DNA of 64,000 nt from an uncultured Ruminococcus sp. (GCA_964621165.1 CAZULC010000001.1:268281-332280); one strand, 5' to 3'; positions 3,916 through 61,594 are shown, counted from the first letter of the stretch. The notes: generated by a model from the letters alone, not told the origin. Made by a program: numbers and translations.

Positions 3916-3948
3916 TAGAATGATAAAAAATTTAAGGTGGTTTTACAT

Positions 3949-11664: not shown

Positions 11665-11721
11665 GTGTTGTGGGATGACGTATCGGCAGATTTTATGATT
11701 TATTGATACAAGGTGAAACAT

Positions 11722-13188: not shown

Positions 13189-13203
13189 TTCTCATAAAAA
13201 TAA

Positions 13204-13236
13204 GCGTATCGTGGGTTTCTGCGGTGCGCTTTTTTT
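13204..13236 (+). terminator. Intrinsic terminator after the fucosidase gene
   Basis: GCGTATCG..CGGTGCGC stem (two G-U pairs on the + strand) followed by T7. Confidence 0.7.
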
Positions 13237-13321
13237 GGCGATTGGACTGATATGGCGACGGTTTACCTGTGCTGATGTTCGTGAAAAAACAAAAATATTT
13301 TAAAAAATATCATAAACTCTC

Positions 13322-13350
13322 TTGAAATATGAATGAAAATGTAGTATCAT
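13322..13350 (+). promoter_or_regulatory. Sigma-A type promoter of the GH26-like gene
   Basis: -35 TTGAAA, 17-nt spacer, -10 TATCAT, 31 nt before the start codon. Confidence 0.5.
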
Positions 13351-13380
13351 ATTATCAACACATATACAAGGAGTATAACT

Positions 13381-14772
13381 ATGATTGACACACGACGGAT
13401 TCTGACCTTGGGGCTGTCCCTGATTTTTGGGCTGTCCTCCATTTCCGTATGCGGTCCGGCTTGGGCTGACGACAGCACTACCACTGTACAGGGCGGCGGG
13501 GTCGCCAAGGATTTATCGGCAAACACTGAGGTTTACATGGTAACATCAACCCCCGGGGCTGATTATGTTTACTACGGCGCGAAGCTGGAGCCAAAGGGCG
13601 GGGTCTACTACGGCAGGGTCTGCACCGGTGGAAAGAGGGAAGACGGCCGCTGGGGCATGGTGAACGACAAGCAGTCGGAAAACGAGTCGGCGGTGGCGTT
13701 CTACTATTCGGCGGACAGCGATTACGACCTTGAGTATTGGAAATATCTATACGAGAACTATTCCGCCTCGGACAATCAGCATGTGGTTCAGATAAACCTG
13801 AACTTTGACAACCTGCACGACGACATCGCGGCCTACGTCTCGGGGAAATACGACGCCCGATTAAAGAAGGATTTTGAGTTTCTGAACACGCGGACCTATC
13901 CGGTTATGCTCAGAATCGGCGGCGAGATGAACGAGTGGTGCCGTGACGACGCAGAGGGGTTCAAAAGAGCGTACATTCACGTGGCGGCTCTTGCGCGGAA
14001 GTATGCACCGGACATGGCGCTGATTTTTTCGCCGAACTTCTGCGGGGCCGTTGGAGTCGACATGGACGATTTTTATCCGGGGGACGATTATGTCGACTGG
14101 GTGGGCTGTTCGTTATACTACAACCGATACGCGGTGAACGGTGACGAGAAATATGACAGCTTTTACGGTGTGAACGAATACGGAGACGCGCTTCTGAACG
14201 TTCAGCAGACTATAAATTTATCCCGACTGCACAAAAAACCGGTTGCGATAACCGAGGGTGGTTCGGCATACAGCATGGACGGAAAGGACACAACAGCATA
14301 CGCGGCTGACCGGGTGAAGCGTGCGATGGCGTATCTGCCCATGGTATACCCTGAGATAAAGAGTGTGATTTACTCCGACACGAACTTTTACACAGGCGCG
14401 GCAGACTTATACAAAATCTACGACAACCAAACGATGTCAGCGGCATTTGACGAAGGAGTCAATGGGAACAAGGTTTATCTTAACGACTGCACCAAAGCCG
14501 GCGGTGATGGGGTGAAGTATTACACCAAGGCGTCAGCGTACACGGGGGAGGTCAAGGGAAAGGTATCCTTTGCGGCGTACACCTTTGCGGTATACTCGAA
14601 GATGCCCCTTACCGCAGTCTGGTCAGTTGACGGCGTTGAGTCAGCGAAGGTGAGCGCATACCCCTATGCCTTTGACCTTGACGCGGCCTCACTCACCCCC
14701 GGCGAACACAAGATAAAAGTAACTTTCAGCAGCGGTGAATCGAAAGAATATACCCTAACCATAGGTCGTTAG
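13381..14772 (+). CDS. Secreted glycoside hydrolase, GH26-like (mannanase family fold)
   Basis: Signal peptide present. Motifs RIGGEMNEW and YPGDDYVDWVGCSLY resemble the GH26 catalytic region. AAGGAG SD. Confidence 0.6.
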   Translation: MIDTRRILTLGLSLIFGLSSISVCGPAWADDSTTTVQGGGVAKDLSANTEVYMVTSTPGADYVYYGAKLEPKGGVYYGRVCTGGKREDGRWGMVNDKQSENESAVAFYYSADSDYDLEYWKYLYENYSASDNQHVVQINLNFDNLHDDIAAYVSGKYDARLKKDFEFLNTRTYPVMLRIGGEMNEWCRDDAEGFKRAYIHVAALARKYAPDMALIFSPNFCGAVGVDMDDFYPGDDYVDWVGCSLYYNRYAVNGDEKYDSFYGVNEYGDALLNVQQTINLSRLHKKPVAITEGGSAYSMDGKDTTAYAADRVKRAMAYLPMVYPEIKSVIYSDTNFYTGAADLYKIYDNQTMSAAFDEGVNGNKVYLNDCTKAGGDGVKYYTKASAYTGEVKGKVSFAAYTFAVYSKMPLTAVWSVDGVESAKVSAYPYAFDLDAASLTPGEHKIKVTFSSGESKEYTLTIGR

Positions 14773-14881
14773 GCAGGGCGGGGAAGCCCCGACGGGCAAT
14801 TTCGGGTCGGGAAGCCCCGACGGGCGATTTCGGCATTTCTTCAGTTGAGAAGTGGAGACATCCCACGACGACCGGAGACTG
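14773..14881 (-). repeat. Family A repeat unit (reverse orientation, doubled hairpin)
   Basis: Begins on the base after the TAG stop at 14770-14772. CGGGGAAGCCCCGACGGGC occurs twice, then the reverse complement of the 5' module (..GGTCGTCGTGGGATG..). Confidence 0.7.
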
Positions 14882-15073
14882 TTAGCCGGTTCTCCAAAAT
14901 AGCGCCCGCGGTTTATCGGTGCTGAGAATGGACTCTTGGGTTCGGGTGAAAAAGTGAATTTTATACAGGCTGGCTCTGCGCGGGGCCGGCTTTTTATTTG
15001 GACGTGAATACTTTCGTCTCCGCGGAGGAAAGATATTTGGGGAAACCAAAATATATTTTACGGAGATGATTTT

Positions 15074-15742
15074 ATGTTCAAGCATGAGAAAATGCTGTTC
15101 CATCCGGTTGGGGTGGAGAAGCCGAACCCACAGTATGCCGCATTATTGCAGGAGCAGCTTGGGGGCGCCAACGGGGAAATGAAGTCCGCTATGCAGTACC
15201 TGTCCCAGAGCTTCCGGGTGAAGGATCCTGAAATCAAGGATTTATTCATGGACATTGCGGCGGAGGAACTGGGTCACATGGAGATGGTTGCGCAGACTAT
15301 CAACCTTCTGAACGGGCATGACGTAGACGCGGCTTCCGTTCCGGCCGGGGAGGTGCAGACTCACGTTCTGCTTGGGCTGAATCCGGGGCTGATCAACGCG
15401 TCGGGCTACAGCTGGACTGCGGACTACGTCACGGTGACGGGGGACTTATGCGCGGACCTGCTCTCGAACATTGCCTCGGAACAGCGGGCGAAGGTGGTGT
15501 ATGAGTACCTTTACCGTCAGATTACCGACAAGCGTGTGCGGGAGACGATTGATTTTCTTCTGAACCGGGAGGAAGCCCACAACGCCATGTTCCGTGAGGC
15601 CTTCAACAAGGTGCAGGACAGCGGCTCCAACCGTGACTTTGGCACAACGAAAGCCGCGCGGATGTATTTCAGCATGTCCGAACCGTCGCCGAATGACAAA
15701 GGCGGCCATGAGATGGACGTGAAAGCCCCGGCGTTCAAGTGA
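15074..15742 (+). CDS. Manganese catalase family protein (CotJC-like)
   Basis: MFKHEKMLFHPV..ALLQEQLGGANGEMKSAMQYLSQSF and the di-metal motif EELGHMEMV. Confidence 0.85.
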   Translation: MFKHEKMLFHPVGVEKPNPQYAALLQEQLGGANGEMKSAMQYLSQSFRVKDPEIKDLFMDIAAEELGHMEMVAQTINLLNGHDVDAASVPAGEVQTHVLLGLNPGLINASGYSWTADYVTVTGDLCADLLSNIASEQRAKVVYEYLYRQITDKRVRETIDFLLNREEAHNAMFREAFNKVQDSGSNRDFGTTKAARMYFSMSEPSPNDKGGHEMDVKAPAFK

Positions 15743-15757
15743 TGTAGGCTGAAAAGA

Positions 15758-15797
15758 AAAAAGCTGGCGTTTGCTTTGGTGCGGGTCAGCTTTTTTG
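15758..15797 (+). terminator. Intrinsic terminator after the catalase gene
   Basis: AAAAAAGCTG..CAGCTTTTTT. Confidence 0.7.
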
Positions 15798-15808
15798 GTT
15801 TGGGGATT

Positions 15809-15902
15809 GCGGGAGCTATTGCATATGGTCGTAGGTTGGGAAGTTGTGCAGAGATTGCCTGTCGGGGCTTCCCGACTCGAGATTGCCTGTCGGGGCTTCC
15901 CG
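15809..15902 (+). repeat. Family A repeat unit (compact, doubled hairpin)
   Basis: TGCGGGAGCTATTGCATATGGTCGTAGG..GATTGCCTGTCGGGGCTTCCCGAC followed by a second GATTGCCTGTCGGGGCTTCCCG. Confidence 0.65.
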
Positions 15903-16096
15903 TAAAAGTAAAACCGCCCGGGAGCAATCCGGACGGCTTCGGGTTAGACGGACAAACAGCGTTATAGTTGTTTGTTTTTTTTGTACCGTTAGGTCGACGA
16001 TACGATTGAGTTAGAGAAGTAATGGACGTAGAATAATCTCGAAAACCTATAATCCTCCACATATGTAATAACACATTTAAAAGCTGTTGTCAAGAT

Positions 16097-16231
16097 AAAA
16101 AGAGCAAAAATGTTCCCGTCTATCTGCACAAATCGTAATTACATAGGCTATGTAGTTTTACTGTATGGCTGTACAGCTGGCGGCGGAGGACCTAACTCCG
16201 TGCAACGCGGGTTTGAATTATGACGGGAACA
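16097..16231 (-). terminator. Long structured 3' region closed by a 10-bp stem plus a U-tract (minus strand)
   Basis: TGTTCCCGTC (16111-16120) pairs with GACGGGAACA (16222-16231). On the minus strand the stem is followed by TTTTTGCTCTTTTT. The 101-nt interior has further local hairpins. Confidence 0.4.
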
Positions 16232-16252
16232 CTTACATTGTTCGTTTCTTAG

Positions 16253-16339
16253 TTACTTATTCTCTTTTTCAGCTATTGCTAACTGAATCAGAAGAATAAG
16301 GACACTAATAATAGTCTGGAGGAAGTTTTCGATGTCCAT
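16253..16339 (-). CDS. 28-aa hydrophobic peptide (type I toxin / holin-like toxin candidate)
   Basis: MDIENFLQTIISVLILLIQLAIAEKENK. GGAAGGAG lies 5 nt upstream of the ATG at 16339. The longer 62-aa ORF in the track runs into the Family B repeat. Confidence 0.35.
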   Translation of the reverse strand: MDIENFLQTIISVLILLIQLAIAEKENK

Positions 16340-16358
16340 TCTTTCTCCTTCCCGCCTA

Positions 16359-16496
16359 TTCTCCTTTAGCGAGAAGAAAAAGACCCAAAAGAGGAACTCC
16401 TTGGAAGTCTTGGGTATTTCGACTTCTGCGGAAGTCGACAAAGGGACTTTGTCCCCTTGACCTAAGCTTTTGTGGCGACAACGTGAAGTTTTAGGG
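16359..16496 (+). repeat. Family B structured repeat, copy B1 (5'-shortened, lacks hairpin H3)
   Basis: CTCCTTTAGCGAGAAG..TCGACTTCTGCGGAAGTCGA..GGGACTTTGTCCC..GTGAAGTTTTAGGG. Confidence 0.65.
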
Positions 16497-17351
16497 CTAC
16501 GGGATGTCGGGGATTACTGTCGGAACCTCATCAAGCTGCCACGGGTTTTTTACCACGGACTTCAACAGTTTCAATGCCGACGCGTAGTAGTATCCATCAC
16601 AGATTCTCTCATCTAATACAAACGTAAAGTCCATATACTGCTTCTTTTTCACCGAACCTTGTGCGTCCATCTCATACACCCGTCTCTTGGAGCCGAAGGA
16701 GAAAAATATGGGGCAGGTGCCGAAGTCATAGAGGTGGTGGTAGATTGGCGGGATGCCGAGGGAGCCCATTGACGTTATGAAGTACGAGCAGTGGAAGGGG
16801 CTTACCTTTGCGATGAACTTAGGCATGACTCCGAAGTAGTCGAGGGTCTTGAAAAACCACACGGCGAACTTGAACATGAGTCCGGGGAGTAGGGTAAACG
16901 CCCGTGCCGTATTGTCGAAGTCCCCGCCGGGGTTAGCTCTATAGGACGTGATTTCATAATCGAGGGCCTTATACACGTCCGCGGTGGTGGCGGTGGGAGG
17001 GAGTGTGATTTTCACGACTGTATCAGGGGACTGGAGGGACATTTCCTTTTTGATGGTGAGTGAGACTTCCACGTTTTTTCTTGTCCAGATTCGCTGACCC
17101 CGTATGAATCTATTTAGTGCGGGGCGCTGTGAAACTACGCGGATGAAGGCTGCTATCATGACGTGCATGATACTGATATTGGGCATACCGTTCTGTTGTT
17201 TTTCGCGGATATATTTTTCGATTTTATCTATTTCGATTGAGTCGGTGATGAAGTTCTGTGAGCCGGTGCGGTTTACCATGATGAAGGGGATGACGGCGGA
17301 CATTGGCGACACGGATTTGACCCGGCGGAATTCTTTTTCTTTTTTGGACAT
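16497..17351 (-). CDS. Acyltransferase with 2-oxoacid dehydrogenase E2 catalytic-domain fold
   Basis: C-terminal LDERICDGYYYA aligns with the DHRxxDG catalytic motif of E2/CAT-type acyltransferases. ATG 17351 (MSKKEKEF) is preferred to the TTG at 17375. Confidence 0.7.
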   Translation of the reverse strand: MSKKEKEFRRVKSVSPMSAVIPFIMVNRTGSQNFITDSIEIDKIEKYIREKQQNGMPNISIMHVMIAAFIRVVSQRPALNRFIRGQRIWTRKNVEVSLTIKKEMSLQSPDTVVKITLPPTATTADVYKALDYEITSYRANPGGDFDNTARAFTLLPGLMFKFAVWFFKTLDYFGVMPKFIAKVSPFHCSYFITSMGSLGIPPIYHHLYDFGTCPIFFSFGSKRRVYEMDAQGSVKKKQYMDFTFVLDERICDGYYYASALKLLKSVVKNPWQLDEVPTVIPDIP

Positions 17352-17698
17352 GTTCTTAACCTTTCTGTTATACAAATGAAAGAATTCTGGTCATCCTTGG
17401 ACGATGAAAAATGGTTGGTTCCGTTTTTCAAAGAATTCTTTGGCGTAAAATCAGCTTAACAAGGGTGAGGTTGGCTGGATATATCACGCGCACCTCATTG
17501 TGGGAAATTTTTTGATATTTTTAAAATTATATCATATTTTATATAAAATTTCAATCAACGTTTGATTAAAAAACAGTATTTAATAAAGAAAATTCAGTTA
17601 ATATAAAAAATTTAGGGAAAACTGGTGAAATTCGCTGGGAGTTCACATTATTGTGGTATTATTATGGGCAGATAATTATATTTTTGCGAGGTTTTGAC

Positions 17699-18322
17699 AT
17701 GGGACACGTGCCTGTTTTGATAGATGAGGGCGAGATTTTATCTTTCCGTGAGGCTTATGCTCGGTCTGAGTCGGGGGTTGGGGGATACGACCGGGGGCGG
17801 TGGTTATATGTGCCGGACTATTACACGGAGTACCGTTACATATTGGGAACGCGTGGGAAGCGGCCGTTGATTGCGGTGGGGGTTAATCCTTCTACGGCGG
17901 GTCCGGGGGACTTGGACAACACGTTGAAGTCGGTGGAGAGAGTGGCGCTTGGGAATGGGTTTGACTCGTTTATTATGTTCAACGTATATGCTCAGCGTGC
18001 TACGGATCCGGATTTGATGGACCGGGAGATGAACGTACGGTTACACCGTGAGAACATGGAGGCATTTGAGTTTATTTTGGAAAAGTATGCGGGGGTCAGT
18101 CATCCGGCGATATGGGCGGCGTGGGGGACGATTATAGAGAAGCGGGGGTATTTGAAGCGGTGTGTGCTCGACATGGTGGAATTAGGGGAGCGGTACGGTG
18201 CTGAGTGGTTTATATGCGGGAAGAGGTCGAAAGCTGGGCATCCGCATCATCCGTTATATTTAAAGAAGGGGGAGCCGCTTATGCCTTTTGACGCGTGGGA
18301 GTATGCGCGGGGGCTTAGGTGA
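17699..18322 (+). CDS. DUF1643 domain-containing protein
   Basis: YRYILGTRGKRPLIAVGVNPSTAGPGDLDNTLKSVERVA..FIMFNVYAQRATDP is typical of DUF1643. ATG 17699 sits 7 nt after GAGG. Confidence 0.75.
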   Translation: MGHVPVLIDEGEILSFREAYARSESGVGGYDRGRWLYVPDYYTEYRYILGTRGKRPLIAVGVNPSTAGPGDLDNTLKSVERVALGNGFDSFIMFNVYAQRATDPDLMDREMNVRLHRENMEAFEFILEKYAGVSHPAIWAAWGTIIEKRGYLKRCVLDMVELGERYGAEWFICGKRSKAGHPHHPLYLKKGEPLMPFDAWEYARGLR

Positions 18323-18406
18323 TATTTATTTTTAGGGGAATATCTCGGGGGAAGTATATTTTTCTGTAGGGAGATTTTATTTTTCTATGGATTTTGCGGG
18401 ATTTTA

Positions 18407-18415
18407 TGGTATAAT
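18407..18415 (+). promoter_or_regulatory. Extended -10 promoter element upstream of mnmG
   Basis: TGGTATAAT lies 53 nt before the start codon. Confidence 0.45.
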
Positions 18416-18467
18416 AAGGTGATGTAATTTTTTAATCTGAATTCTTTGGAGACTTACATATATTATC

Positions 18468-20372
18468 ATGGAAAAATTTGATGTTGCAGTTGTTGGTGCG
18501 GGTCACGCGGGAGTCGAGGCCGCTCTTGCCTGTGCGCGCATTGGGTTAAAGACTGCTTTGTTTACGCTTTCCCTTGACGCGGTGGCGAACATGCCCTGCA
18601 ATCCTTCCATTGGTGGAACGGGAAAGGGGCATTTGGTTTACGAAATTGACGCTCTTGGCGGTGAGATGGGTTATGCCGCGGATTTAGCTACCACTCAGTC
18701 CCGCATGCTGAACACCTCGAAAGGTGCGGCTGTGCAGTCGAAGCGGGTACAGGCTGACCGTCGGAAGTACACGGCTATCATGAAGTCGGTTATCGAGAAC
18801 ACCCCAGGGTTATACCTGATTCAGGGGGAAGTAGTCGACATTTTGGTTGAGCCGTCGGGGGAATCCGGTCGGATGAAGGTTGTAGGGGTTACAGCTGAGC
18901 CGTCGGGGGAGTACTCCTGCAAAGCGGCTGTTATTTCCACGGGAACCTATCTCGGCGGGCGGACGTTTGTGGGGGATGTGGTTCGTGAATCGGGGCCTGA
19001 CTCCACTTTACCGGCGAAGTCGCTCACGGGGAAGCTGGAGAAGTTAGGTTTCCGTTTGATGCGGTTCAAGACCGGGACTCCGCCGAGGATCAACAGGCGG
19101 TCCATTGATTTTGGCGAGCTTGACGTACAGGAGGGGGACGGGTACATTGTGCCGTTTTCTTCCCGCACGGACGAGGCGGCTTTGAACCGAATAAAGCAGG
19201 ACGTCTGTCATGTGGCGTACACGAATGAAGAGACTCACAAAATCATCCGGGAGAACATCAGCCGCTCACCCTTATACTCGGGGATGATACACGGGGTAGG
19301 TCCGCGGTACTGTCCGTCGATTGAGGACAAGGTGATACGTTTTGCGGACAAGGAGCGTCACCAGTTATTTGTGGAGCCGATGGGGGAGAATTGCAGTGAG
19401 ATATATCTACAGGGGTTTTCCTCATCCTTACCGGCGGACGTACAGGAGAAGATGCTGCGGACGCTCAAGGGGTTCGGACATGCGGAGATCATGCGGTACG
19501 CCTATGCGATAGAGTACGACTGCATTGACCCGCTTGAGTTATACGGCACTCTTGAGACGAAGCGTGTTGCGGGGTTATTTGGCGCGGGTCAGTTCAACGG
19601 GACATCCGGATACGAGGAAGCGGCGGCTCAGGGGGTATTGGCGGGGATCAACGCGTCGTTATACTGTCGGGGCATGGAGATGATTACATTACCGCGGCAC
19701 TCGTCGTATTTAGGGACGTTAGTGGACGATTTAGTGACGAAAGGCACGGCTGAGCCATACAGGATTATGACGGGGCGGAGCGAGTACCGGATTTTACTGC
19801 GTCAGGACAACGCGGAGGCGCGGCTTTCGAAGTACGGGCATTATGCGGGGTTATTATCGGATGAGCGTTTTTTTGCTGCTGAGGAGCGGACGAGGTTAGT
19901 TGAGGCTGAGGTCGAGCGTTTGAAGCGGGTGAGCATTGGGTCGACCAGCGGGGTGAACGAATTACTCCGTGAGAGGGGGACCAGTGAGATAAAGAGTGGG
20001 GCGACTTTAGCTGAATTAATACGGCGGCCGCAGTTAGACTATGAGATGTTGGCGCCATATGACGAAGGCAGGCCGGAGCTTGAGCGTGGGTTGAGGTTTC
20101 GGGTATGGTGTGAAGTGAAGTACGAGGGGTACATCAGACACGAGTTGAGTGAGGCGGCGCGGTTTGAGGCTGCCGAGGGGATGGTTTTACCGGCTGGTGT
20201 GGATTATACCGAGATAAAGGGGTTACGTCTTGAGGCTGTGCAGAAGCTTGATTTAGTGAAGCCGCGGACGATTGGGCAGGCGTCGAGGATTTCCGGTGTG
20301 AATCCGGCGGACGTAGCGGTGCTTATGATATGGCTTCGCGAGCGTCGGTGCGGTAATGCGGACAAGGAATAG
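18468..20372 (+). CDS. mnmG: tRNA uridine 5-carboxymethylaminomethyl modification enzyme MnmG (GidA)
   Basis: FAD fold VVGAGHAGVEAALA, NPSIGGTGKGHLVYEIDALGG, GPRYCPSIEDK and the C-terminal GidA-associated domain. Confidence 0.95.
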   Translation: MEKFDVAVVGAGHAGVEAALACARIGLKTALFTLSLDAVANMPCNPSIGGTGKGHLVYEIDALGGEMGYAADLATTQSRMLNTSKGAAVQSKRVQADRRKYTAIMKSVIENTPGLYLIQGEVVDILVEPSGESGRMKVVGVTAEPSGEYSCKAAVISTGTYLGGRTFVGDVVRESGPDSTLPAKSLTGKLEKLGFRLMRFKTGTPPRINRRSIDFGELDVQEGDGYIVPFSSRTDEAALNRIKQDVCHVAYTNEETHKIIRENISRSPLYSGMIHGVGPRYCPSIEDKVIRFADKERHQLFVEPMGENCSEIYLQGFSSSLPADVQEKMLRTLKGFGHAEIMRYAYAIEYDCIDPLELYGTLETKRVAGLFGAGQFNGTSGYEEAAAQGVLAGINASLYCRGMEMITLPRHSSYLGTLVDDLVTKGTAEPYRIMTGRSEYRILLRQDNAEARLSKYGHYAGLLSDERFFAAEERTRLVEAEVERLKRVSIGSTSGVNELLRERGTSEIKSGATLAELIRRPQLDYEMLAPYDEGRPELERGLRFRVWCEVKYEGYIRHELSEAARFEAAEGMVLPAGVDYTEIKGLRLEAVQKLDLVKPRTIGQASRISGVNPADVAVLMIWLRERRCGNADKE

Positions 20373-20399: not shown

Positions 20400-20620
20400 G
20401 GGTGAAGTGGAGCGGGTGCGGGAATTTTGTTCTTCTTTTTCTCCTTTGGCGAGGAGGAAAAAGAAGCAAAAAGAGGAACTTTTTATTGAGTCTTGGGGTG
20501 TTTCGACTTCTGCGGAAGTCGACAAAGGGACTTTGTCCCCTTGACCCTAACAGACTTTTGAAAAAGTTTGATCAAAACTTGTGGCAACAACGTTTAGTTT
20601 GAAGTTTTAGAGATCCTTCT
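20400..20620 (+). repeat. Family B structured repeat, copy B2
   Basis: H0 CTCCTTTGGCGAGGAG, H1 TCGACTTCTGCGGAAGTCGA, H2 GGGACTTTGTCCC, H3 ACTTTTGAAAAAGT. It ends 30 nt before the cimA ATG. Confidence 0.7.
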
Positions 20621-22269: not shown

Positions 22270-22600
22270 CTGAATTTGGCGTTTTGGACTAATGCCCTTC
22301 TATAAACCGAATAATATTGTGTGGCAGAGTTTAAATTCGGACTATTGTCCCTCTGTTGGCTGTGCGATATTGTGCGGTGGAATTTATTTTTAGGCTATTG
22401 ACCTGTTGTCTCTGCAGTGGGTGAGTTTGAAATTGGACTATTGTCGCTCTATAAGCAGAATGATATTGTGCGGTTGAGCTTAAAATTGGACTAATGTCCC
22501 ATCGGCAAACGTGCTATATTGTGCGGTAGAATTTGATTTTGGACTATTGTTCTGCTGTCTCGGCTATGCGCGAGTTTGAAATTGGCCTAATGCCATACCG
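22270..22600 (+). repeat. Family E tandem array: seven GGACnnnnGTCC-type palindromes in a 149-bp higher-order repeat
   Basis: GGACTA(A/T)TG(T/C)CC-like sites start at 22286, 22339, 22393, 22435, 22488, 22541 and 22584. Spacings are 53, 54, 42, 53, 53 and 43 nt. Each site is preceded by ATATTGTGCGGTnGAATTTGAAATT. Confidence 0.7.
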
Positions 22601-25799: not shown

Positions 25800-26038
25800 T
25801 TATTTTTCTTTTATGGATTGGATGACGGGGAGATGGTGCGGATTGTTCTTTGTTCTTTTCTCCTTTATCGAGGAGCAAAGAACCAAAAGAGGAACTTCTT
25901 GGAAGTATTGGGGTGTTTCGACTTCTGCGGAAGTCGACAATGGGACTTTGTCCACTTGATCCTAACAAGCCTTTGAAAAGGCTTGACCTAAACTTTTGGG
26001 CTGACTACGTTTTGTTGAAATTTTTAGTGATCCTTCTT
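25800..26038 (+). repeat. Family B structured repeat, copy B3 (full length)
   Basis: H0 CTCCTTTATCGAGGAG, H1 TCGACTTCTGCGGAAGTCGA (25918-25937), H2 GGGACTTTGTCCA, H3 AAGCCTTTGAAAAGGCTT. It ends 14 nt before ATG 26052. Confidence 0.7.
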
Positions 26039-38096: not shown

Positions 38097-38777
38097 TGCG
38101 GGAGCTTAAGTTTGTCGTCGAAGGTTGGCTTTAAATCAAAACTGAACGAACGATGTGCTTGCCCGTGGGGGCTTCCCCGCAATCGTAGGTTTTCGGGCGG
38201 TTTTGGGGCTGATGAAGTGCCGTGCTTGCCGCTACCGACCCCACTGCGGGAGCTTAAGTTTGTCATCGAGGGTTGGCTTTAAATCAAAACTGAACGAACG
38301 ATGTGCTTGCCCGTGGGGGCTTCCCCGCAATCGTAGGTTTTCGGGCGGTTTTGGCTGATGAAGTGCCGTGCTTGCCTGTCGGTGCTACCGACCCCACTGC
38401 GGGAGCTTTAGTTTGTCATCGAGGGTTGGCTTTAAATCAAAACTGAACGAACGACGTGCTTGCCCGTGGGGGCTTCCCCACAATCGTAGGTTTTCGGGCG
38501 GTTTTGGGACTGATGAAGTGCCGTGCTTGCCGCTACCGAACCCACTGCGGGAGCTTTAGTTTGTCATCGAGGGTTGGCTTTAAATCAAAACTGAACGAAC
38601 GACGTGCTTGCCCGTGGGGGCTTCCCCACAATCGTAGGTTTTCGGGCGGTTTTGGGACTGATGAAGTGCCGTGCTTGCCGCTACCGAACCCACTGCGGGA
38701 GCTTTAGTTTGTCATCGAGGGTTGGCTTTAAATCAAAACTGAACGAACGACGTGCTTGCCCGTGGGGGCTTCCCCAC
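38097..38777 (+). repeat. Tandem array of Family A composite units (4.6 x 148-153 bp)
   Basis: Units start at 38097, 38245, 38398, 38546 and 38694 (TGCGGGAGCTT..). Units are near-identical. The last unit is cut at 38777 and supplies the last 14 codons of the GH2 gene on the other strand. Confidence 0.85.
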
Positions 38778-40961
38778 CTTGGCGGCTTCTGCGGCCTCTT
38801 TTGACTCTATGTACATGTTGTATTCGTTGACTATTGTAGTGCCGCAGGCGCATTTGAAGGTCAGCTTCACTTGGAACACCGTCTTCGGCTTCGTTCCTGC
38901 GGGGAACTTGAACTTTATTACGCCGCCTTTGGCGTTTTTGTTCTCCTCTGCCACAACATGGTGTACGCCAGTGTAATATTCAACTCCGTCAAGCGTAATT
39001 TCGGAGATAATGTCGCCTTCCGGTGCGTGAGGGCCGTCGTTGAGCAGCCATGTCTCGAACTCGAACTCCTCCTCCGGAAACCACGCAAATTTCCTGAACT
39101 TGGCTGAGGGAACAACATCGCGGAGGGAGTCTTTTACCGCAAAATACCCGCCCTTTTTCACGTTGGGGTATGCGATGAGGGAGTTGTTCGCGGCGCACTT
39201 CCACGGCTCGCACCAGCACCAGTTGATTGCCATTGCGCAGAGGGGCTTCTGACGGCGGGCTTCCTCGAAAATTGCCTTATATCCGATGCCTTGGAGCCTG
39301 TTTGACGTCTCGACGATTGACTCAATTGTGGAAATATCACCAAATCTTTCCAGCGTTGGAAGACTCAGCCACGGATTCATGCCGCCCCATGCATAGAACG
39401 CGTGATGTGCCTGCCAAACTCCGCCAGGCTTGGGTGGGAACAGCTCGTCCTCGGGGATAAATGAGCGGAGGTACTCTACACTCGGCGGAGTTGCGGGAAT
39501 TCCAAACTCGGTGTAGGCTGTGGCGCGGGTCCGACCGAAGAGTGCGAACTGGTCCTCACCGGTTTCAAGATCGAGGAAGGTATAGCCGCCGTGCTTCATT
39601 CCGTCGATTGGCGAGGTGGGGTTGAAGGGGACTTCGGGGCAAAGCTCGAGGGTGAGTGCGTTGAGGAGTCGGAGCGCGAGGTGCTGATCCGTCATGCCCG
39701 ACCAGCTATTGAACAGCTCGTTTCCGCCGCACCAGATTGCGATGGACGGATGTGAGCGGAGCTTCAGAATTATTGCGGTTGCCTCCTGCTTGAGAATGGA
39801 TAAATATTCAGGGGAGTCGTAGTAGTTATTGCAGGACAGGGGGAACTCGAACCAGAGCATGATTCCGTATTTATCGCAGAGGCTGTAAAAAATTTCCTTC
39901 TGGCATCCGGTACCGCCCCAGCAGCGGAATACGTTCATGTTGGCTTCATACGCGAACCTGATGAGTTCCTCGTATTCTTTATCTGTCACAATGCCGGGGA
40001 AGATTTCCTGATTGACGTAGTTGGAGCCTTTTGCGAAAACGTTGACTCCGTTGAGTGTAATCTGAGCCGGTGGCCATGCGCGGGACTTAGGGAAGCCTTG
40101 TGGGTCGATGAGTCTGCCGCAGTTTTGGGTGAGCTGGACTCTACGGAAGCCGATTTTCTTATCAACTGAGTTTTCTTCATTATAAACGGTGACTGTATAA
40201 AGGTTGGGTTCGCCGTAGCCTCTACACCACCAGAGCTTGGGATTTTCGACGTACGCGGTGAATTTACCGTCAATGGTTGTTCCTTCGGCAACGACATCTC
40301 CTGCTGTGTCGGTGATTTTGACCTTACAGGGGAGTGTTGAGTCGACGGTTGTAGTGACTTCGGCGTGTGTGAAGTCCGGGGAAAGGGTATAGCGGGATTC
40401 TGTTCTGCCGATATAGTATTGGTTACGTGATTCTACGAATGTGTCGTCCCATATACCGGAGGGGATAGCTCTGGGGTGCCAGTCCCAGTAGTAGGAGACG
40501 GGGGGTTTACAGGACTGGGAGGCTTGGTTACGGTCCATTGGCATACCCTCGAGCATGGGGTGGGGGTGGATTTTGATTTTGAGGTTATCGCCGGGCTTAG
40601 TGTTACGACCGAAGAGTGAGTTTGCGAAGTCGTCGAGGCAGATATCGACCCGTGAGAACATACCCTCGTGGTGGAAGATCTCGCGGTCATTGAGGAGTAC
40701 GGTCCAGATATAGTCGATCCCCTCGGTAGCGAACCAGATTTTCTCGCCGGCCTTACGCTGGAAGTCGAGAGTTGTGGTATAATACCAAGTAAAAGGTTCC
40801 AGCTGCGTCATCTTTTCGTGCTGCATACCGTAGTTTATATCCGAGATGAATTCTGGGTGTGCCTTAATATAGTCATTCTGCACGTTTCCGGGAACCTGAG
40901 CGGGAAACGGCGGGCAGTCGACATCCGGCGAGTAAGCGGTAAAATTTTGGTAAAACTTCAT
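38733..40961 (-). CDS. Glycoside hydrolase family 2 (beta-mannosidase / exo-glucosaminidase-like)
   Basis: GH2 architecture with a sugar-binding N-terminal region, a TIM barrel with FRCWGG and CGGNELFN. AAGGAG SD. The C-terminal GKPPRASTSFVQF is encoded by the antisense of a Family A unit. Confidence 0.85.
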   Translation of the reverse strand: MKFYQNFTAYSPDVDCPPFPAQVPGNVQNDYIKAHPEFISDINYGMQHEKMTQLEPFTWYYTTTLDFQRKAGEKIWFATEGIDYIWTVLLNDREIFHHEGMFSRVDICLDDFANSLFGRNTKPGDNLKIKIHPHPMLEGMPMDRNQASQSCKPPVSYYWDWHPRAIPSGIWDDTFVESRNQYYIGRTESRYTLSPDFTHAEVTTTVDSTLPCKVKITDTAGDVVAEGTTIDGKFTAYVENPKLWWCRGYGEPNLYTVTVYNEENSVDKKIGFRRVQLTQNCGRLIDPQGFPKSRAWPPAQITLNGVNVFAKGSNYVNQEIFPGIVTDKEYEELIRFAYEANMNVFRCWGGTGCQKEIFYSLCDKYGIMLWFEFPLSCNNYYDSPEYLSILKQEATAIILKLRSHPSIAIWCGGNELFNSWSGMTDQHLALRLLNALTLELCPEVPFNPTSPIDGMKHGGYTFLDLETGEDQFALFGRTRATAYTEFGIPATPPSVEYLRSFIPEDELFPPKPGGVWQAHHAFYAWGGMNPWLSLPTLERFGDISTIESIVETSNRLQGIGYKAIFEEARRQKPLCAMAINWCWCEPWKCAANNSLIAYPNVKKGGYFAVKDSLRDVVPSAKFRKFAWFPEEEFEFETWLLNDGPHAPEGDIISEITLDGVEYYTGVHHVVAEENKNAKGGVIKFKFPAGTKPKTVFQVKLTFKCACGTTIVNEYNMYIESKEAAEAAKVGKPPRASTSFVQF

Positions 40962-41008
40962 GCGGTTTGGCTCCTTATTTATAGATTTAATTAGGTTCAG
41001 ATTTGATG

Positions 41009-41452
41009 TGAAGGTGAACGAGGGGGACGTGCTTCTTTAAAGAAGCTGTGCAGGAACTTTATTCCTCATTCTGTTTTATGTGAAGTTTAGCAGGACATGT
41101 TCACTCCGAGCTAATCTGTAGTTTAGTAAGGAGGATGCGGAGAAAATATAGAATACCAAGGGATCAGGAGGGATATAATACGGCAGTCAGGAACAGCCTT
41201 ATTGGAGATAGCTTGCTATCTCCGGTACACAGTTCCCGCCCCCTGTCTGCCCACGCCGGATTCAGATTGCGGGATGGGGCAGTGATAACGTGCAGTTTAC
41301 ATCAGTTATATCAGCGCGAGCGTTGGTGCTGATGGTTGAGAAGATCATGAAATGTTGCGATTGCTGGATTAGCAGTGATAACGTTTGGTTCTACAGCAGT
41401 TATATCAGCGCGAGCGTTGGTGTTGAGGGTGGAGAAAATCATGACGGTATAT
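41009..41452 (+). ncRNA. Family C structured intergenic element, copy b (3' module tandemly duplicated)
   Basis: Same block order as copies a and c. Hairpin GGAGATAGC-TT-GCTATCTCC is present. The 3' module GCAGTGATAACG..GTTATATCAGCGCGAGCGTTGGTG occurs twice (41279 and 41372, 93-nt period). Confidence 0.5.
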
Positions 41453-41826
41453 TATCTTGTAATAAAGTAAATCCCGGAGTGACGTTTCAAAACAAGCGTA
41501 GATGAAACCCTGCTCTCGCAAGGACGGCGCCCTCTCCGATGGTTTGTGCTCCCAGCGTCCTAATCACTACGGCGGCGCGGAATGCGTCTCACGGTAATGG
41601 AGGGAGGTCTGCATACCTGCACCGGAAGTCCAGGCTCCTTTTTACTCTTTGTGGGTTTTTACGCTCATCTTTATTTCGTACACCCCAGGACAGGGTTGAT
41701 TATATGATGTTGGTTTTGCGTACTTCTGTTATAGTTCGGTTTAAGTTTGCGTTATCCTTGACTTTTCAATCTTAGAATCAAGTTGTTCTTATGAAATTTA
41801 ATTTTGCTTAAATTGCTTGTGAAGCC

Positions 41827-43501: not shown

Positions 43502-43676
43502 TTTCCCGGTAGCTTGGGTTTGTCGTCGAGGGATTGCTGTAAATTTAAACTGCAAAAATGACGTGTCTGCCTGTCGTTGCTATTGACTGCGGGAGCTAAA
43601 GTTTGTAGTCGAGGGATCGCTTCAAATTCAGACTTCAAAAACGACGAGATAGCCCGCGGGGACTTCCCCGCCCCCA
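43502..43676 (+). repeat. Two tandem Family A units (first with a degenerate hairpin)
   Basis: ..GGTAGCTTGGGTTTGTCGTCGAGGGATTGC.. then TGCGGGAGCTAAAGTTTGTAGTCGAGGGATCGC..GACGAGATAGCCCGCGGGGACTTCCCCGC. Confidence 0.65.
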
Positions 43677-43854
43677 CTATATTTTAGCATAGTTGGGGGG
43701 AGATTGCAACAGATTTTGGGAATTATGTTTACAGAAATCTTTTTATTTTTACAGTTTTTGTTTTATGACGATAAAAGTTTTGTTTATGATAGGTGCGTAA
43801 ATAATAAAGATTTGACTTTTTCCGTCATTTTCGCAAAAAGTTTTGATTTTGCTA

Positions 43855-44821: not shown

Positions 44822-45125
44822 TGGAATTGGATTTAGAGAATTCAGGGATTTCGTTGTTATTTTCTCATTTATCGATGAGCAAAGGACCAAAAGAGGAACT
44901 CCTTGGAAGTATTGGGTGTTTCGAATTCTTCGGAATTCGACAATGGGACCCGCTTCCCTTGACCCTAACAAACTTTTGAAAAGGCTTGATCTAAACTTTA
45001 TTGCTACAACGTGAAGTTGAGTAGTGAAGTTTGCCCGCGGGGGCTTCCCCGCTTCCCTTGACCCTAACAAGTCTTTGAAAAGGCTTGATCTAAACTTTTC
45101 GGCAACAAAGTGAAGTTGAAATTTA
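44822..45125 (+). repeat. Family B structured repeat, copy B4 (chimeric, 3' module duplicated around a Family A hairpin)
   Basis: H0 CTCATTTATCGATGAG and H1 TCGAATTCTTCGGAATTCGA. The 3' module CTTGACCCTAACAA..AAAGGCTTGATCTAAACTT occurs twice, separated by CCCGCGGGGGCTTCCCCGC (45034-45052). Confidence 0.7.
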
Positions 45126-49754: not shown

Positions 49755-49985
49755 GCTTTCTCCTTTATGGATTTATGTACAAGGGGAGAATAGTGCGGGA
49801 TTTCGTTGTTCTTTTCTCCTTTATCGAGGAGCAAAGAACCAAAAGAGGAACTCCAGAAAGAGCTTGCTCTTTCAGAAGTCAATGGGGTGTTTCGAATTCT
49901 GCGGAATTCGACAATGGGACTATGTCACCTTGACCTAAACTTTTGGGCTGACAATGTTTAGTTTAAATTTATTGAGATACTTCTA
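49755..49985 (+). repeat. Family B structured repeat, copy B5 (lacks hairpin H3)
   Basis: H0 CTCCTTTATCGAGGAG, H1 TCGAATTCTGCGGAATTCGA, H2 GGGACTATGTCAC. It ends 28 nt before ATG 50013. Confidence 0.7.
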
Positions 49986-51679: not shown

Positions 51680-52828
51680 TTACGTTTTTTCATCAAATGG
51701 CTCGCCTTTTACCGCTCCAATGCACATGACGGCCTGTGTGTCGGTGTTCTCCCACCAGTTTTCGCTGATGAAGCAGCCACACTCGTCGAAGGTGACGTTT
51801 CCGCCGAACTCCGGGTCATGCTGGAAGAAATTCCAACCGTAAAGGGTTATGTTATTGTCAAGGGACTGATTTGAGGTTTCGGCAGAAGTTCCCCATTCCC
51901 GGTAGCCGGTGATTATGCAGGGTTCCGGTGGTCCTATGATACCCAGCGCTATGCAGGGGTAGCCTTCGTCTATGTGGGACTTGATGAAGTTTGTGAAGTC
52001 GTCCTTGGTGGTGGTTTTGTCCCGCCCGGTGAAGAAGAATTCCCGTCCCAAAGCTTCTGCTGGGATTCTGTAGACGCCGCCGCTTTCGTCGAAGGTGTGG
52101 CAGATGTCAACGTTGCTCAGGTCCCAGTCGAGGCTGTTCCACGCGAATCTGAACGCGGCTCCGGTGATTGCCATGGTTGTGGGGCAGTCAACGTCCTCAC
52201 CGAGGTAGGCGAGAGTTGATTTGAGGCAGATGGGGTAGGGTGTACAGCCGCCGTATTCGCCGAAGCCAGCCTTGGGGATGCCATATAAGATGGTGCTGTT
52301 GGTGGATTGTTTTGTCATGGGTATGTCGCTCCTTTGTTCTTTTTTGGGAATAATGCCTACGCTGAATATACCGTCACATAATTGCACCTTTCCGACAATG
52401 GGTCGTTCTGAAAAAGATTTGTCGCCATGCTGCGGGAGTTTTGTTTTGTCGTCGTGGGATAGCTTTACGGTTTCAGCTTCAGAAGTGCCGTTTTGCCTGT
52501 CGGGGCTTCCCGACCTGAATTTGCTGGGATTCATGCCTGTGATTCTGTGGAATGAGCGGGTGTAGGTTTCATGGCTGGAGAAGCCGTACTTTAGTGCTAT
52601 GTCGAGTATGGTTTTGTCCGAGTGGAGGAGGTCGAGGGCTGAGCGGTGGATTTTCCGCGTGAGGATATACCTTGTGATTGGCATGCCTGTGTCGTGGCGG
52701 AACTGGGTTCGGATATGCACCCACGAGAAGCCGAGTGCTTTTTGGATTTGCTCCGGTGTGAGTGGGGAGTCGAGAATATGGGACTCGATATAGCGGATTG
52801 CGGCTATGGTGCAGAGTGGATAGCTCAT
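51680..52828 (-). CDS. AraC-type HTH regulator with an uncharacterised C-terminal domain, carrying an in-frame Family A insertion in the linker
   Basis: N-terminal HTH (ITRYILTRKIHRSALDLL..IALKYGFSSHETYTRSFHRITG). The linker SGSPDRQNGTSEAETVKLSHDDKTKLPQ is encoded by the antisense of repeat 52430-52514. AAAGGAA SD. Confidence 0.75.
   Translation of the reverse strand: MSYPLCTIAAIRYIESHILDSPLTPEQIQKALGFSWVHIRTQFRHDTGMPITRYILTRKIHRSALDLLHSDKTILDIALKYGFSSHETYTRSFHRITGMNPSKFRSGSPDRQNGTSEAETVKLSHDDKTKLPQHGDKSFSERPIVGKVQLCDGIFSVGIIPKKEQRSDIPMTKQSTNSTILYGIPKAGFGEYGGCTPYPICLKSTLAYLGEDVDCPTTMAITGAAFRFAWNSLDWDLSNVDICHTFDESGGVYRIPAEALGREFFFTGRDKTTTKDDFTNFIKSHIDEGYPCIALGIIGPPEPCIITGYREWGTSAETSNQSLDNNITLYGWNFFQHDPEFGGNVTFDECGCFISENWWENTDTQAVMCIGAVKGEPFDEKT
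52430..52514 (+). repeat. Family A repeat unit located inside a CDS (antisense to it)
   Basis: TGCGGGAGTTTTGTTTTGTCGTCGTGGGATAGC..CAGCTTCAGAAGTGCCGTTTTGCCTGTCGGGGCTTCCCGAC. All Family A modules are present. Confidence 0.7.
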
Positions 52829-54079: not shown

Positions 54080-54406
54080 GATGGGAAACGAGGGGAGACG
54101 CGCTTCTTGAAAGAAGCTGTGCAAGAACTTTACTCCTCATTCTTTATCACGTTCAGTTGAGTAGGGGAACGGTCACTTCGTACAATTCTGCAGCTTAGCA
54201 GGGAGGAGTCCGGATAAGGTGGAGCGATCCAGGGGATGAGGACACAGTGGCTGACAGCAGTCAGGGACCGCCTTGTTGGAGATAGATTGCTATCTCCGGT
54301 ACACGTTCCCGACCCCTGCCTGCCCACGCCGGATTCAGATTGCGGGATGAAGCAGTGATAACGTTTTATTTACAGCAGTTATATCAGCGCGAGCGGAGTG
54401 CTTGCC
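54080..54406 (+). ncRNA. Family C structured intergenic element, copy c
   Basis: Outer stem GGGGAG(54092-54097)/CTCCTC(54133-54138) encloses GCTTCTT-GAA-AGAAGC. Hairpin GGAGATAG-ATTG-CTATCTCC is present. The 3' hairpin is TGATAAC..GTTATATCA. Confidence 0.5.
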
Positions 54407-54514
54407 GCGGAGAATATCAGGACGGATTACGATTCTGGAATATGGTTTGCAGTAGTTTCGCGAATCAGGACGGTGCCAGATTCTGCAATCCAGTGCGGAG
54501 TAGTGCAGCGATAC

Positions 54515-55453
54515 TTATACCGCGGCAAGCCACTGGGCGAACATTACTATGGGTGCAATTGTTACTGTGCAGAACAGGACTGACGAGCCTACGAGCTCAC
54601 TTGCGTATCCGGGGGAGATTTTATACATTTCGTCGAACATTGTGACCACCGCCGCGCAGGGCATTGCCGCCATTATTGTGCCGAAGACTATCATATATTC
54701 GGGGAGTCCCACGAGTTTTAATATACATGCGGTGAGGAGGGGCATTATTACGAGTTTTACTATATTTGTGTAGTAGACGTTTTTATTTTTAAGCATTATT
54801 TTCAGCGAGCGGCGGGAGAGGTTTGCTCCGGAGATTATCATTGATATGGGGGTGCAGATATTACTTAGATATGACGTGAGGTTGAGGAGGGGCTGGGGGA
54901 GGGGAAGGTGGAGAACGAACAGTGTTAAGCCTATGATGCAGGGCAGTGTGCCATAGTTGAGGATTATTTTCTTTGGTGTGATTTTTATGTCGTTGCGCTT
55001 TCTTGCTAAAATCATGATTCCCCATGTCCAGACGAAGAGGTGGAAGGACACGATATAGAACGCGCCATAGAAGAGGCCCTCTTCACCGAAGATTGAGTTT
55101 ACGATAGGGAAGCCGATGAAGCCGCAGTTTGCGAAGAACATTGAGTATTCGGAGAGCTTTTGTTCATCGAAGTCGCGGATGGGTCGGGCGAGGAGGAAAG
55201 CCACAGCCGCCATTGCCCCATGCATACAGAGGCCGAGAGCGAGAATTTTCAGTCCTGTTATTAGGTTTTCCCGGGTGTACTCTTGGGAAATGAGGGCGTT
55301 TATGATGAGAAAGGGCTGACCCAATTTTATGATTAGTGTGGAGAGGCGTTCGGTGGAAATTTCGTCTGTGATTTTCGTCTTACCCGTGATATAGCCTGCC
55401 AAAAGAAGCAGTGCGAGGGTGGCGACGGTTGATAATAGCTCGCTTGTCTGCAT
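54515..55453 (-). CDS. AEC (auxin efflux carrier) family transporter
   Basis: 312-aa polytopic membrane protein with the two-repeat AEC layout. It starts 4 nt after the stop of the amidase gene. Confidence 0.8.
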   Translation of the reverse strand: MQTSELLSTVATLALLLLAGYITGKTKITDEISTERLSTLIIKLGQPFLIINALISQEYTRENLITGLKILALGLCMHGAMAAVAFLLARPIRDFDEQKLSEYSMFFANCGFIGFPIVNSIFGEEGLFYGAFYIVSFHLFVWTWGIMILARKRNDIKITPKKIILNYGTLPCIIGLTLFVLHLPLPQPLLNLTSYLSNICTPISMIISGANLSRRSLKIMLKNKNVYYTNIVKLVIMPLLTACILKLVGLPEYMIVFGTIMAAMPCAAVVTMFDEMYKISPGYASELVGSSVLFCTVTIAPIVMFAQWLAAV

Positions 55454-57681: not shown

Positions 57682-57786
57682 CATTATTGCACAAGTCCCA
57701 GTTGTATGGCTCATTATTGCACAAGTCCCAGTTGTACGGCTCATTATTGCACAAGTCCCAGTTGTACGGCTCATTATTGCACAAGC
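57682..57786. repeat. 30-bp perfect tandem repeat, 3.5 copies
   Basis: CATTATTGCACAAGTCCCAGTTGTA(T/C)GGCT is repeated from 57682. The only variation is one T/C. Confidence 0.9.
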
Positions 57787-61031: not shown

Positions 61032-61138
61032 TGAACTTTGGGTTCTTGGCTGTGCTGCTTGGCGTGTGCATGATTTTGGTATAAGTTATAAATTAAGCCT
61101 TGCTTGAATAAATTTTATTTGAGTGGGGCTTATTCTAT

Positions 61139-61462
61139 TGCGGGAGCTTGAGCTTGCCGTCGAGAGAGCTTTTCCGCTTTTGGCTGAAGAAATGACGAGA
61201 ACACCCGCGGGGGTTTCCCCGCTTCCTTCATTATTATATATAAGAATTTTTGCGGGAGCTTGAGCTTGCCGTCGAGAGAGCTTTTCCGCTTTCGGCTGAA
61301 TAAATGACGAGAACACCCGCGGGGGTTTCCCCGCTTCTTTCATTATTATATATAAGTATTTTTGCGGGAGCTTGAGCTTGTCGTCGAGGGATCTTTTCCG
61401 CTTTTGGCTGAAGAAATGACGAGAACACCCGCGGGGGTTTCCCCGCTTCTTATTATATATAG
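61139..61462 (+). repeat. Tandem array of Family A units (3 x 112 bp)
   Basis: TGCGGGAGCTTGAGCTTG(C/T)CGTCGAG..GACGAGAACACCCGCGGGGGTTTCCCCGC plus a 28-nt AT-rich spacer. Units start at 61139, 61251 and 61363. Confidence 0.85.
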
Positions 61463-61594
61463 GGATAAAATGGATGTGTTTGAAATATTTAATCTAATTT
61501 AAGAACGCGGAATCACATTTTGTTCAAAAAAAACTCTTGCTTTTTTTCTTATTTTATTATATGATATATACGTTGTAGATTGCTGTCGAATCGG

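Follow-up and report, generated by a model that had tools for sequence, protein, structure and literature searches.

A multi-copy non-coding element of gut and rumen Clostridia, a probable non-autonomous mobile repeat related to IS5-type MITEs

Family C is a genuine non-coding multi-copy element of approximately 330–440 bp. The best-supported reading of our results is that it behaves as a non-autonomous mobile element belonging to a superfamily that also contains IS5-type MITE lineages landing on stop codons. The window analyzed here, a 64,000-nt stretch from an uncultured Ruminococcus sp. (GCA_964621165.1 CAZULC010000001.1:268281-332280), is an ordinary chromosomal region of a carbohydrate-degrading Clostridia bacterium. 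Its genes include an ABC transporter, guaA, GH2/GH3/GH123, a fucosidase, GFO/IDH/MocA oxidoreductases, AddAB, mnmG, and ddl; the guaA of the nearest species representative, a Eubacteriales MAG, was only 76% identical.

Copies of Family C, their anatomy and their insertion sites

A sequence-only reading of the window had described three homologous copies on the + strand, sharing an ordered set of conserved blocks and no conserved ORF. A profile built from the three copies (nhmmer) recovered each of them with E values between 3e-92 and 8e-106, all of the ordered blocks were found (mean column identity 78%), and the 24-mer GCTGTGCARGAACTTTAYTCCTCA common to copies a, b, and c occurred exactly three times, against 0.00 expected from shuffles. 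Each window copy contained 3–13 stops in every one of the six frames, so that no frame was open. The copies, together with the parts of copy c, are placed as follows.

3428–3735, + strand: copy a; nhmmer E = 3e-92 over 3428–3720; leader directly 3′ of the ABC-permease TAG stop (3409–3411), module from 3450
41009–41444, + strand: copy b; nhmmer E = 5e-103 over 41010–41324; flanked by the 6S RNA and GH2 genes
54080–54428, + strand: copy c, whole element; nhmmer E = 8e-106 over 54080–54397; the 5′ leader may start near 54066
54102–54130, + strand: conserved 5′ module of copy c; hairpin GCTTCTTGAAAGAAGC (54102–54117), TGT, then GCAAGAACTT (54121–54130)
54155–54195, + strand: helix H2 of copy c, AGTTG ... 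CAGCT (alifold, seven copies)
54257–54323, + strand: hairpin H5 of copy c, GCAGTCAGGG ... CCCTGCCTGC, conserved in all copies
54278–54297, + strand: optional hairpin inside the H5 loop of copy c, GGAGATAG/CTATCTCC
54338–54428, + strand: 3′ "R" module of copy c; GATTGCGGGATG, hairpin GCAGTGATAAC/GTTATATCAGCGCG, hairpin AGCGC/GTGCT, tail GGAGAATATCAGGACGGATT

The 3′ limit of copy c was set by alignment with four copies of a sister species (L214, described below), which share ...GGAGAAnATCAnGACGGATT; because the 3′ module is part of every copy, including these four, copy c extends to approximately 54428. Copy b ends near 41444 and carries the 3′ module twice, as a tandem duplication (41264–41357 and 41358–41444), the additional module being detected at 41355–41418 by the three-copy profile. 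A variable purine-rich leader of 20–40 nt was also found 5′ of the start coordinate given by the sequence-only reading. Copy a is placed between the ABC-permease stop codon and an intrinsic terminator (3751–3775), the guaA promoter being at 3887–3915, and copy b is flanked by TGA at 41008–41010 and TGA at 41442–41444. The R-module junction in copy b also creates a 52-codon Cys-rich ORF on the + strand (41338–41496; MKCCDCWISSDNVWF...), which is absent from every other copy and is therefore probably fortuitous.

A common anatomy was drawn from eight Family C copies. From the 5′ end, the leader, which is the least conserved part of the element, is followed by the module (hairpin GCTTCTTGAAAGAAGC, then GCAAGAACTTT), by CTCATTCT, and by helix H2 (AGYTG...CAGCT) around the conserved TCACTYCG. 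After a variable segment come hairpin H5 (GGCAGTCAGGG...CCCTGCCTGCC), the R module (three small hairpins), and finally the tail GGAGAAnATCAnGACGG. The R module (GATTGCG...GCAGTGATAAC...GTTATATCAGCGCG...GGAGAAnATCA) occurs once per full copy, except in copy b, which has two. Its 16-nt invariant run is the longest of the element (p = 0.001, column shuffling) and was the sole invariant block longer than chance allows. The extra hairpin in the H5 loop is present in copies b and c and in a fourth copy of the same organism, and absent from copy a and all L214 copies.

The fourth copy lies just to the left of the window, at positions 1–177 of a Logan contig (L212) that starts inside it. Four further full-length copies were found within 10 kb of L214 (GCA_037193895.1), a sister species whose guaA is 91% identical to that of the window and which keeps the Bmp–ABC-permease–guaA synteny, giving eight copies within 76 kb over two genomes. 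Diverged copies were present in contigs L205 and L002.

The mobile-element behavior proposed from the sequence was borne out by comparison of orthologous sites, at some of which the element is present and at others absent. In L213, the synteny YgjV–DUF1292–6S RNA–GH2–lactamase–RACo–AddAB is kept but copy b is missing, the intergenic region measuring 381 nt versus 866 nt in the window; the extra block of the window spans approximately 41001–41447, with TGA on either side. The GFO protein of L205 is 82% identical to that of the window, and its diverged Family C copy stands head-to-head with the GFO gene, as copy c does. L206 encodes a GFO protein identical to that of L205, and the two sequences diverge exactly from the 5′ end of the element outwards. 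In addition, short-read (Logan) contigs of the source organism break in modules, L001 in copy c and L212 in copy a, which is the behavior of a repeat in an assembly graph. Beside copy b, the window contains a 6S (SsrS) RNA gene (41467–41694, − strand) between DUF1292 and GH2, and the copy was inserted approximately 22 nt beyond its 3′ end. The Rfam match to this gene was full length and below threshold (30.2 bits versus a gathering score of 46.4; E = 1.7e-4), and the 6S RNA block was approximately 93% identical to the syntenic block of L213, the neighboring GH2 proteins being only 71% identical.

The site of copy a is also occupied in L214 (9325–9664), where the distance from the permease stop to the module is again 38 nt. 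The segment after the conserved TCACTYCG differs, however, being CGAACTATTCT in copy a and CGTACAA in the L214 copy, so that the two may not be orthologous by descent. Identity between copies of the two species was 68–79%, compared with 50% at four-fold sites of guaA, and the intergenic DNA adjoining copy a was not alignable between them. This above-neutral similarity fits functional constraint; continued insertion or gene conversion could also produce it.

Among 10 placed copies, approximately five were sense and five antisense relative to the genes around them, which have unrelated functions; the antisense copies (b, c, L214 copy 2, L205, and L002) have the 5′ end facing the gene start. The genes downstream of the copies were likewise unrelated (guaA, the DUF1292/6S side, and a transporter). 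Across 64 superfamily loci, the downstream gene was co-oriented in 32 and opposed in 32, which leaves no constant leader or riboswitch position and agrees with the earlier suggestion that the element is not the cis leader of a regulon.

MITEs are expected to have terminal inverted repeats of at least 10–15 bp and a target-site duplication of 2–10 bp. No terminal inverted repeats were found in copies a, b, c, or L205. The flanking triplets matched in copy b alone (TGA/TGA), those of copy c being TGA/GGA and copy a having none; the 3′ boundary of the element is uncertain by approximately 10 nt. Family C is not filed as a MITE because it has no terminal inverted repeats and its duplication is ambiguous. 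Its size of 330–440 bp, with no transposase gene and all frames closed, lies within the 50–800 bp given for prokaryotic MITEs (PMC11602168), and it is dispersed in at least four copies in the source organism and four in L214, with unrelated flanks and insertion polymorphism.

With regard to the enzyme, the window contained no transposase, TnpB, reverse transcriptase, or recombinase. Neighbor-ORF clustering and inspection of downstream ORFs revealed no transposase, TnpB, reverse transcriptase, or recombinase recurring near at least 120 related loci, and no 0.6–2.6-kb element with matching ends, as expected of a cognate autonomous IS, was found. The longer master copy with an ORF, which the sequence-only reading had suggested looking for, did not emerge from these searches. 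Since no candidate gene was present in the window or recurred near the loci, a mobilizing enzyme is something that we infer rather than observe.

The module superfamily and its MITE subfamilies

A relaxed pattern of the module (leader, hairpin GCTTCTTGAAAGAAGC, and GCAAGAACTT) identified at least 120 rumen-like metagenome loci and one phage contig. The relaxed pattern alone succeeded, the exact 24-mer giving no match in the public genome, metagenome, and viral collections scanned. Plasmid and phage BLAST searches with copy c and a subfamily 1 element returned nothing similar. No account of the family came up in literature searches on rumen/Clostridia MITEs and stop-codon-adjacent MITEs, and a literature search by sequence strings retrieved unrelated primers only. 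Many of the module matches lay at contig ends.

The sequence 3′ of the module consisted of several unrelated bodies across the superfamily. Two of these bodies (subfamilies 1 and 2) are canonical MITEs without an ORF, 232 and 182 bp in length, with imperfect 24-bp terminal inverted repeats (TACTAAATCCCTTCTAAGG... / ...TAGTA) that match at 15–19 of 24 positions. The flanking bases matched in 20 of 25 independent insertions of the two subfamilies, indicating a 3-bp TNA duplication (TGA in 7, TTA in 8, and TAA in 5). In 14 of the 25 insertions, the duplicated TNA served in frame as the stop codon of a long neighboring ORF, which could lie on either strand (L090–L200). The coinciding triplets were TGA or TAA on the strand of the element and TTA or TCA for a convergent gene, and insertion at such a site thus rebuilds the stop codon. 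The stop-codon sites of these sister elements with terminal inverted repeats were met in both orientations (8 versus 7). A TNA target with a 3-bp repeat characterizes the IS1031 group within the IS5 family (PMC12016507). The enzyme of the sister subfamilies is most likely an IS5-family, IS1031-type DDE transposase. For IS1031 derivatives, we found no earlier account of such frequent coincidence with stop codons in the literature searched.

Other members of the superfamily have different arrangements. Fold-back members carry the module in both long arms (L102, L180, and L182). On the 90.7-kb phage contig (L202; IMGVR_UViG_3300028888_000097), a module-bearing element with the CACGGGGTAACGTG hairpin typical of subfamily 2 lies at 4736–4900, between two structural-region genes and just upstream of a gene for a virion structural or tail-like protein. 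Family C belongs to the leader-type class, in which 26 of 30 modules were located 8–90 nt beyond a same-strand ORF of 100 or more codons, compared with 16% of random positions; for ORFs of at least 250 codons, the values were 21 of 30 and 5%. The left flank of the modules usually conforms, if loosely, to YGA or a stop codon. Copy a and two of the L214 copies begin 0–9 nt past a stop codon.

Three other readings of the module were rejected. Coding on the reverse strand (KFLxxFFQEA) was dismissed, with stops close by and the variable codons covarying as a stem. A promoter composed of TTGAAA in the hairpin loop and a downstream TATAAA was discarded because the spacing is 19 nt, the subfamilies do not share the −10 element, and it is the spacer that would be invariant. 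An ECF-type promoter (GAACTT) had no conserved −10 element.

Among the closest known systems are the bacterial MITEs of the IS5/IS1031 group, which the sister subfamilies resemble in their size of 182–232 bp, lack of an ORF, 24-bp imperfect terminal inverted repeats, and 3-bp TNA duplication (PMC12016507). Family C has the same module as these sisters, and shares their size range, copy behavior, and intergenic habit, but it has neither terminal inverted repeats nor a consistent duplication, and no IS with matching ends was found for it. A further difference from IS5/IS1031-group MITEs is the conserved internal hairpin module of the superfamily, which is located at one end only. The eukaryotic analogue of the IS1031-group MITEs is the Tourist/PIF-Harbinger group.

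The Correia/NEMIS elements of Neisseria and the ERIC/IRU elements of enterobacteria are, like Family C, small, multi-copy, non-coding, and intergenic; they form stem-loops when transcribed with neighboring genes and can influence flanking mRNAs (PMC2229807). Their length is 100–160 bp, with terminal inverted repeats pairing end to end, whereas Family C is a multi-hairpin element of 330–440 bp without terminal pairing or sequence similarity to them. CIR repeats of Caulobacter and Brucella share multi-arm predicted structures, a conserved exposed motif, and a partial fit to the definition of MITEs, and their mode of mobility is unknown (PMC2229807). They differ from Family C in sequence, taxa, and motif (GANTC), and no stop-codon association has been reported for them. 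REP/BIME units, by contrast, are RAYT-linked imperfect palindromes of 20–40 nt, often in alternating arrays; the Family C unit is approximately ten times longer and not a simple palindrome.

IS200/IS605 derivatives (PATEs) and TnpB/IscB guide-RNA scaffolds resemble Family C in lacking terminal inverted repeats and in having sub-terminal hairpins, structured 150–250-nt non-coding ends, and a replication-related orientation bias, but Family C has no associated TnpA, TnpB, or IscB and no Rfam match, and its relatives make target duplications. ROOL, GOLLD, OLE, and raiA RNAs also occur in Firmicutes and rumen metagenomes, sometimes in phages, and are several hundred nucleotides long with many hairpins. 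Those RNAs are present in one or few copies with strong covariation, whereas Family C has many copies per genome and covariation that is not significant.

Structure, strand, and competing explanations

The sequence-only reading had proposed that the copies encode a large, undescribed + strand ncRNA or an RNA-based mobile element. In line with "undescribed", Rfam 15 gave no match anywhere in the window at the gathering score, copy c at E ≤ 10 gave only a spurious snoRNA (E = 1), and 13 related loci gave nothing at either threshold. A known RNA family was rejected, as no Rfam model for ROOL, GOLLD, OLE, raiA, HEARO, IS605-orfB, riboswitches, or ribozymes matches. The large ncRNA itself fared worse on covariation, the measure named beforehand for deciding against it: over the seven-copy alignment, the score was 0.064 versus 0.057 ± 0.008 for shuffled controls and was reached by 96 of 500 shuffles. 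The consensus folding energies (alifold, seven copies) were −39.4 kcal/mol for the + strand and −38.4 kcal/mol for the − strand, so that the fold does not single out a + strand RNA, and the single-copy folding z-scores were unremarkable (−2.3, −1.7, −0.3, and −1.4). Consensus scans of the copies revealed no shared promoter upstream and no shared terminator downstream. Nothing pointed to an RNA-based mode of mobility, and the sister subfamilies are DNA-type MITEs.

The individual helices behaved differently. The proposed outer stem GGGGAR/YTCCTC is not kept in the four L214 copies (AAACTC), L205, or L002, and the invariant G-U pair assigned to it falls together with the stem. In contrast, helix H2 was retained, with two pairs that vary only as G-C/G-U across seven copies (4:3 and 4:3). 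The hairpin GGAGATAG/CTATCTCC, previously described in copies b and c as being replaced by a different short hairpin in copy a, proved to be optional, inserted where a larger, conserved hairpin has its loop. The description of 3′ hairpins with invariant stems and variable loops was accurate. Compensatory changes were observed in H5, from A-U to G-C in L214 copy 4 and from C-G to A-U in L205 (GGAAGTCAGGG/CCCTGACTTCC). Modest covariation among types was seen in the lower part of the module hairpin stem (14 double-change cells versus 8.4 ± 2.0, reached by 3 of 500 shuffles), and the internal hairpin of subfamily 1 covaries strongly, with many compensatory changes. A long-range pairing of the 5′ G-rich tract with CCCCTGCCTGCCC, obtained from a three-sequence alifold, gave way to the local H5 after L205 and L002 were added. 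Overall, these observations argue only weakly for an RNA, and an RNA or single-strand function of the conserved hairpins, the most interesting reading, is not established by these data.

The GC skew of the window was positive throughout and unusually strong (+0.04 to +0.23 in 8-kb windows), so that the + strand is the leading strand across the window. The + strand of the element lay on the G-skewed leading strand in 4/4 copies of the source organism and 3/4 copies of L214, whatever the local gene direction. Such a bias would suit a mechanism based on single-stranded DNA, but eight copies are few, and no skew bias was present across the metagenome loci.

On balance, we consider that Family C is probably a lineage-specific non-autonomous mobile repeat of an uncatalogued, module-defined superfamily of gut and rumen Clostridia. 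An enzyme encoded elsewhere in the genome would copy or move it, insertions would be kept at gene ends and in short intergenic gaps, and a sense-oriented element would start at, or adjoining, a stop codon. The conserved hairpins would most simply be cis features needed for propagation. After insertion, the element may be transcribed passively with its neighbors, copy a in the 3′ UTR of the ABC-transporter operon and copies b and c antisense to or upstream of GH2 and GFO/IDH/MocA genes. A broader proposal, which we offer only tentatively, is that the superfamily represents an undescribed kind of small element in which varied backbones, with or without terminal inverted repeats, share one hairpin-plus-GCAAGAACTT module. 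Insertion would be directed to stop codons, and the TNA duplication would rebuild the stop so that the gene survives. Family C would be a long-lived member, maintained because selection acts on one folded strand, be it RNA or lagging-strand-template DNA, and such selection would explain the identity of copies between the two species compared with 50% at neutral sites.

The same conservation could be read as that of independently transcribed, structured + strand ncRNA genes that duplication has multiplied and selection on the RNA has retained. The lack of an Rfam match means that such an RNA would be undescribed. The hairpins are conserved across species, including the compensatory changes in H5; the G-U wobbles that are the only variation in H2 would be A-C mismatches on the other strand; the 68–79% identity between species is far above neutral; one 16-nt block is invariant; and sister subfamily 1 has a strongly covarying internal hairpin. 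We nevertheless regard RNA genes as unlikely, since the seven-copy covariation does not rise above shuffles, the two strands fold with equal energy at z-scores of −0.3 to −2.3, no promoter or terminator is conserved, and the 5′ leader is the least conserved part. Moreover, eight copies in 76 kb of two genomes, with presence/absence differences, do not fit a housekeeping RNA, and relatives with the same module are MITEs with target-site duplications. A role in cis, which we rate as marginally less likely still, would make Family C a host-useful element of mRNA 3′ ends and intergenic regions, as for REP, ERIC, and Correia, transcribed with the upstream gene and shaping mRNA stability, processing, or termination, with mobility as the arrival route only. 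Such a role is consistent with the 87% of leader-type modules that directly follow the stop codon of a co-oriented gene (16% of controls), with the three copies 0–9 nt after a stop, with the location of copy a between stop and intrinsic terminator, and with the effects of small bacterial repeats on flanking mRNAs (reviewed in PMC2229807). Half of the Family C copies are antisense, however, and the sisters with terminal inverted repeats meet stop codons in both orientations, so that the adjacency can follow from target choice and element geometry alone.

Alternatively, Family C might have arisen by deletion from an IS200/IS605-type (HUH) element, which would make it akin to a PATE or an omega-RNA relic, and it would then move on the lagging-strand template as single-stranded DNA. 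The sub-terminal hairpins near both ends fit this origin, as do the absence of terminal inverted repeats and of a clear duplication, the usual YGA or stop codon at the left flank, the + strand of 7/8 copies on the strongly G-skewed leading strand, and helices that tolerate G-T pairs on that strand only. Yet neither TnpA nor TnpB was found in the window or near the related loci, no IS605-orfB or HEARO-type Rfam match appeared even at E ≤ 10, and the hairpins at the two ends show no sequence relationship. In place of a fixed target tetranucleotide, the left flank conforms only loosely to YGA or a stop codon, and the absence of skew bias across the metagenome loci also argues against this origin. 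Module-bearing relatives also make true TNA duplications, unlike HUH elements, and we consider this derivation very improbable.

If the mobile-repeat reading holds, uncultured fiber-degrading Clostridia of the gut and rumen carry abundant small mobile repeats that are in no catalogue. These repeats would fragment metagenome assemblies, as in the source-organism contigs that end in the module, and at gene ends they can alter 3′ UTRs, terminators, and neighboring promoters. The stop-codon-coincident TNA duplications of the sister MITEs suggest a form of transposon insertion that is harmless to genes. The conserved module is a ready probe for the family and its mobilizing enzyme. Should the module function as a signal in RNA or single-stranded DNA, several element types would have a new cis element in common.

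Other repeats in the window and related contigs

Next to copy c, the region 54400–54530 contains a perfect 11-bp inverted repeat (GCTTGCCGCGG / CCGCGGCAAGC, 109 nt apart), which fills the gap from the end of copy c to the stop codon of a membrane-transport gene. Two occurrences of ATCAGGACGG lie in the enclosed stretch, which may represent an additional, decayed 3′ module.

Two further repeat families were observed in the window. One (…GGGGTGTTTCGACTTCTGCGGAAGTCGACAA…CCTTGACCC…) occurs at 16379–16500, 20454–20602, 25846–26017, 44850–45119, and 49802–49973, and four of its five copies stop 20–50 nt ahead of a + strand gene start; a related sequence is present in L206 as the reverse complement. 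This family may represent either a promoter or leader common to these genes or a further mobile repeat. The other, located at 6536–6602, 38097–38803, 43507–43698, and 61138–61473, has units of 75–148 nt that end in a G+C-rich hairpin (CCCGYGGGG..CCCCGC) and are often in tandem (five units at 38.1–38.8 kb and three at 61.1–61.5 kb). Short hairpins related to it (CCTGTCGGGGyTTCCCG) were found at 6921–6974, 15849–15914, and 52487–52524. Local repetition was also seen at 22321–22592 (three or four units of approximately 83 nt) and at 57682–57785 (three tandem units of 30 nt).

In L205, positions 3600–5100 contain three tandem repeats of approximately 470 nt, each with a strong promoter-like site and a 30-residue hydrophobic ORF (MVVTVCTVITTVCTVLLLWLAWLSYRNDMK) that is type I toxin-like. 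They are followed by a sequence resembling a tRNA gene, adjoining the diverged Family C copy. In L214, a low-GC (35%) island directly after guaA (11661–20278), with nothing alike at the window site, carries an integrase, HTH regulators, two D12-class methyltransferases, and an AlwI-type restriction enzyme.
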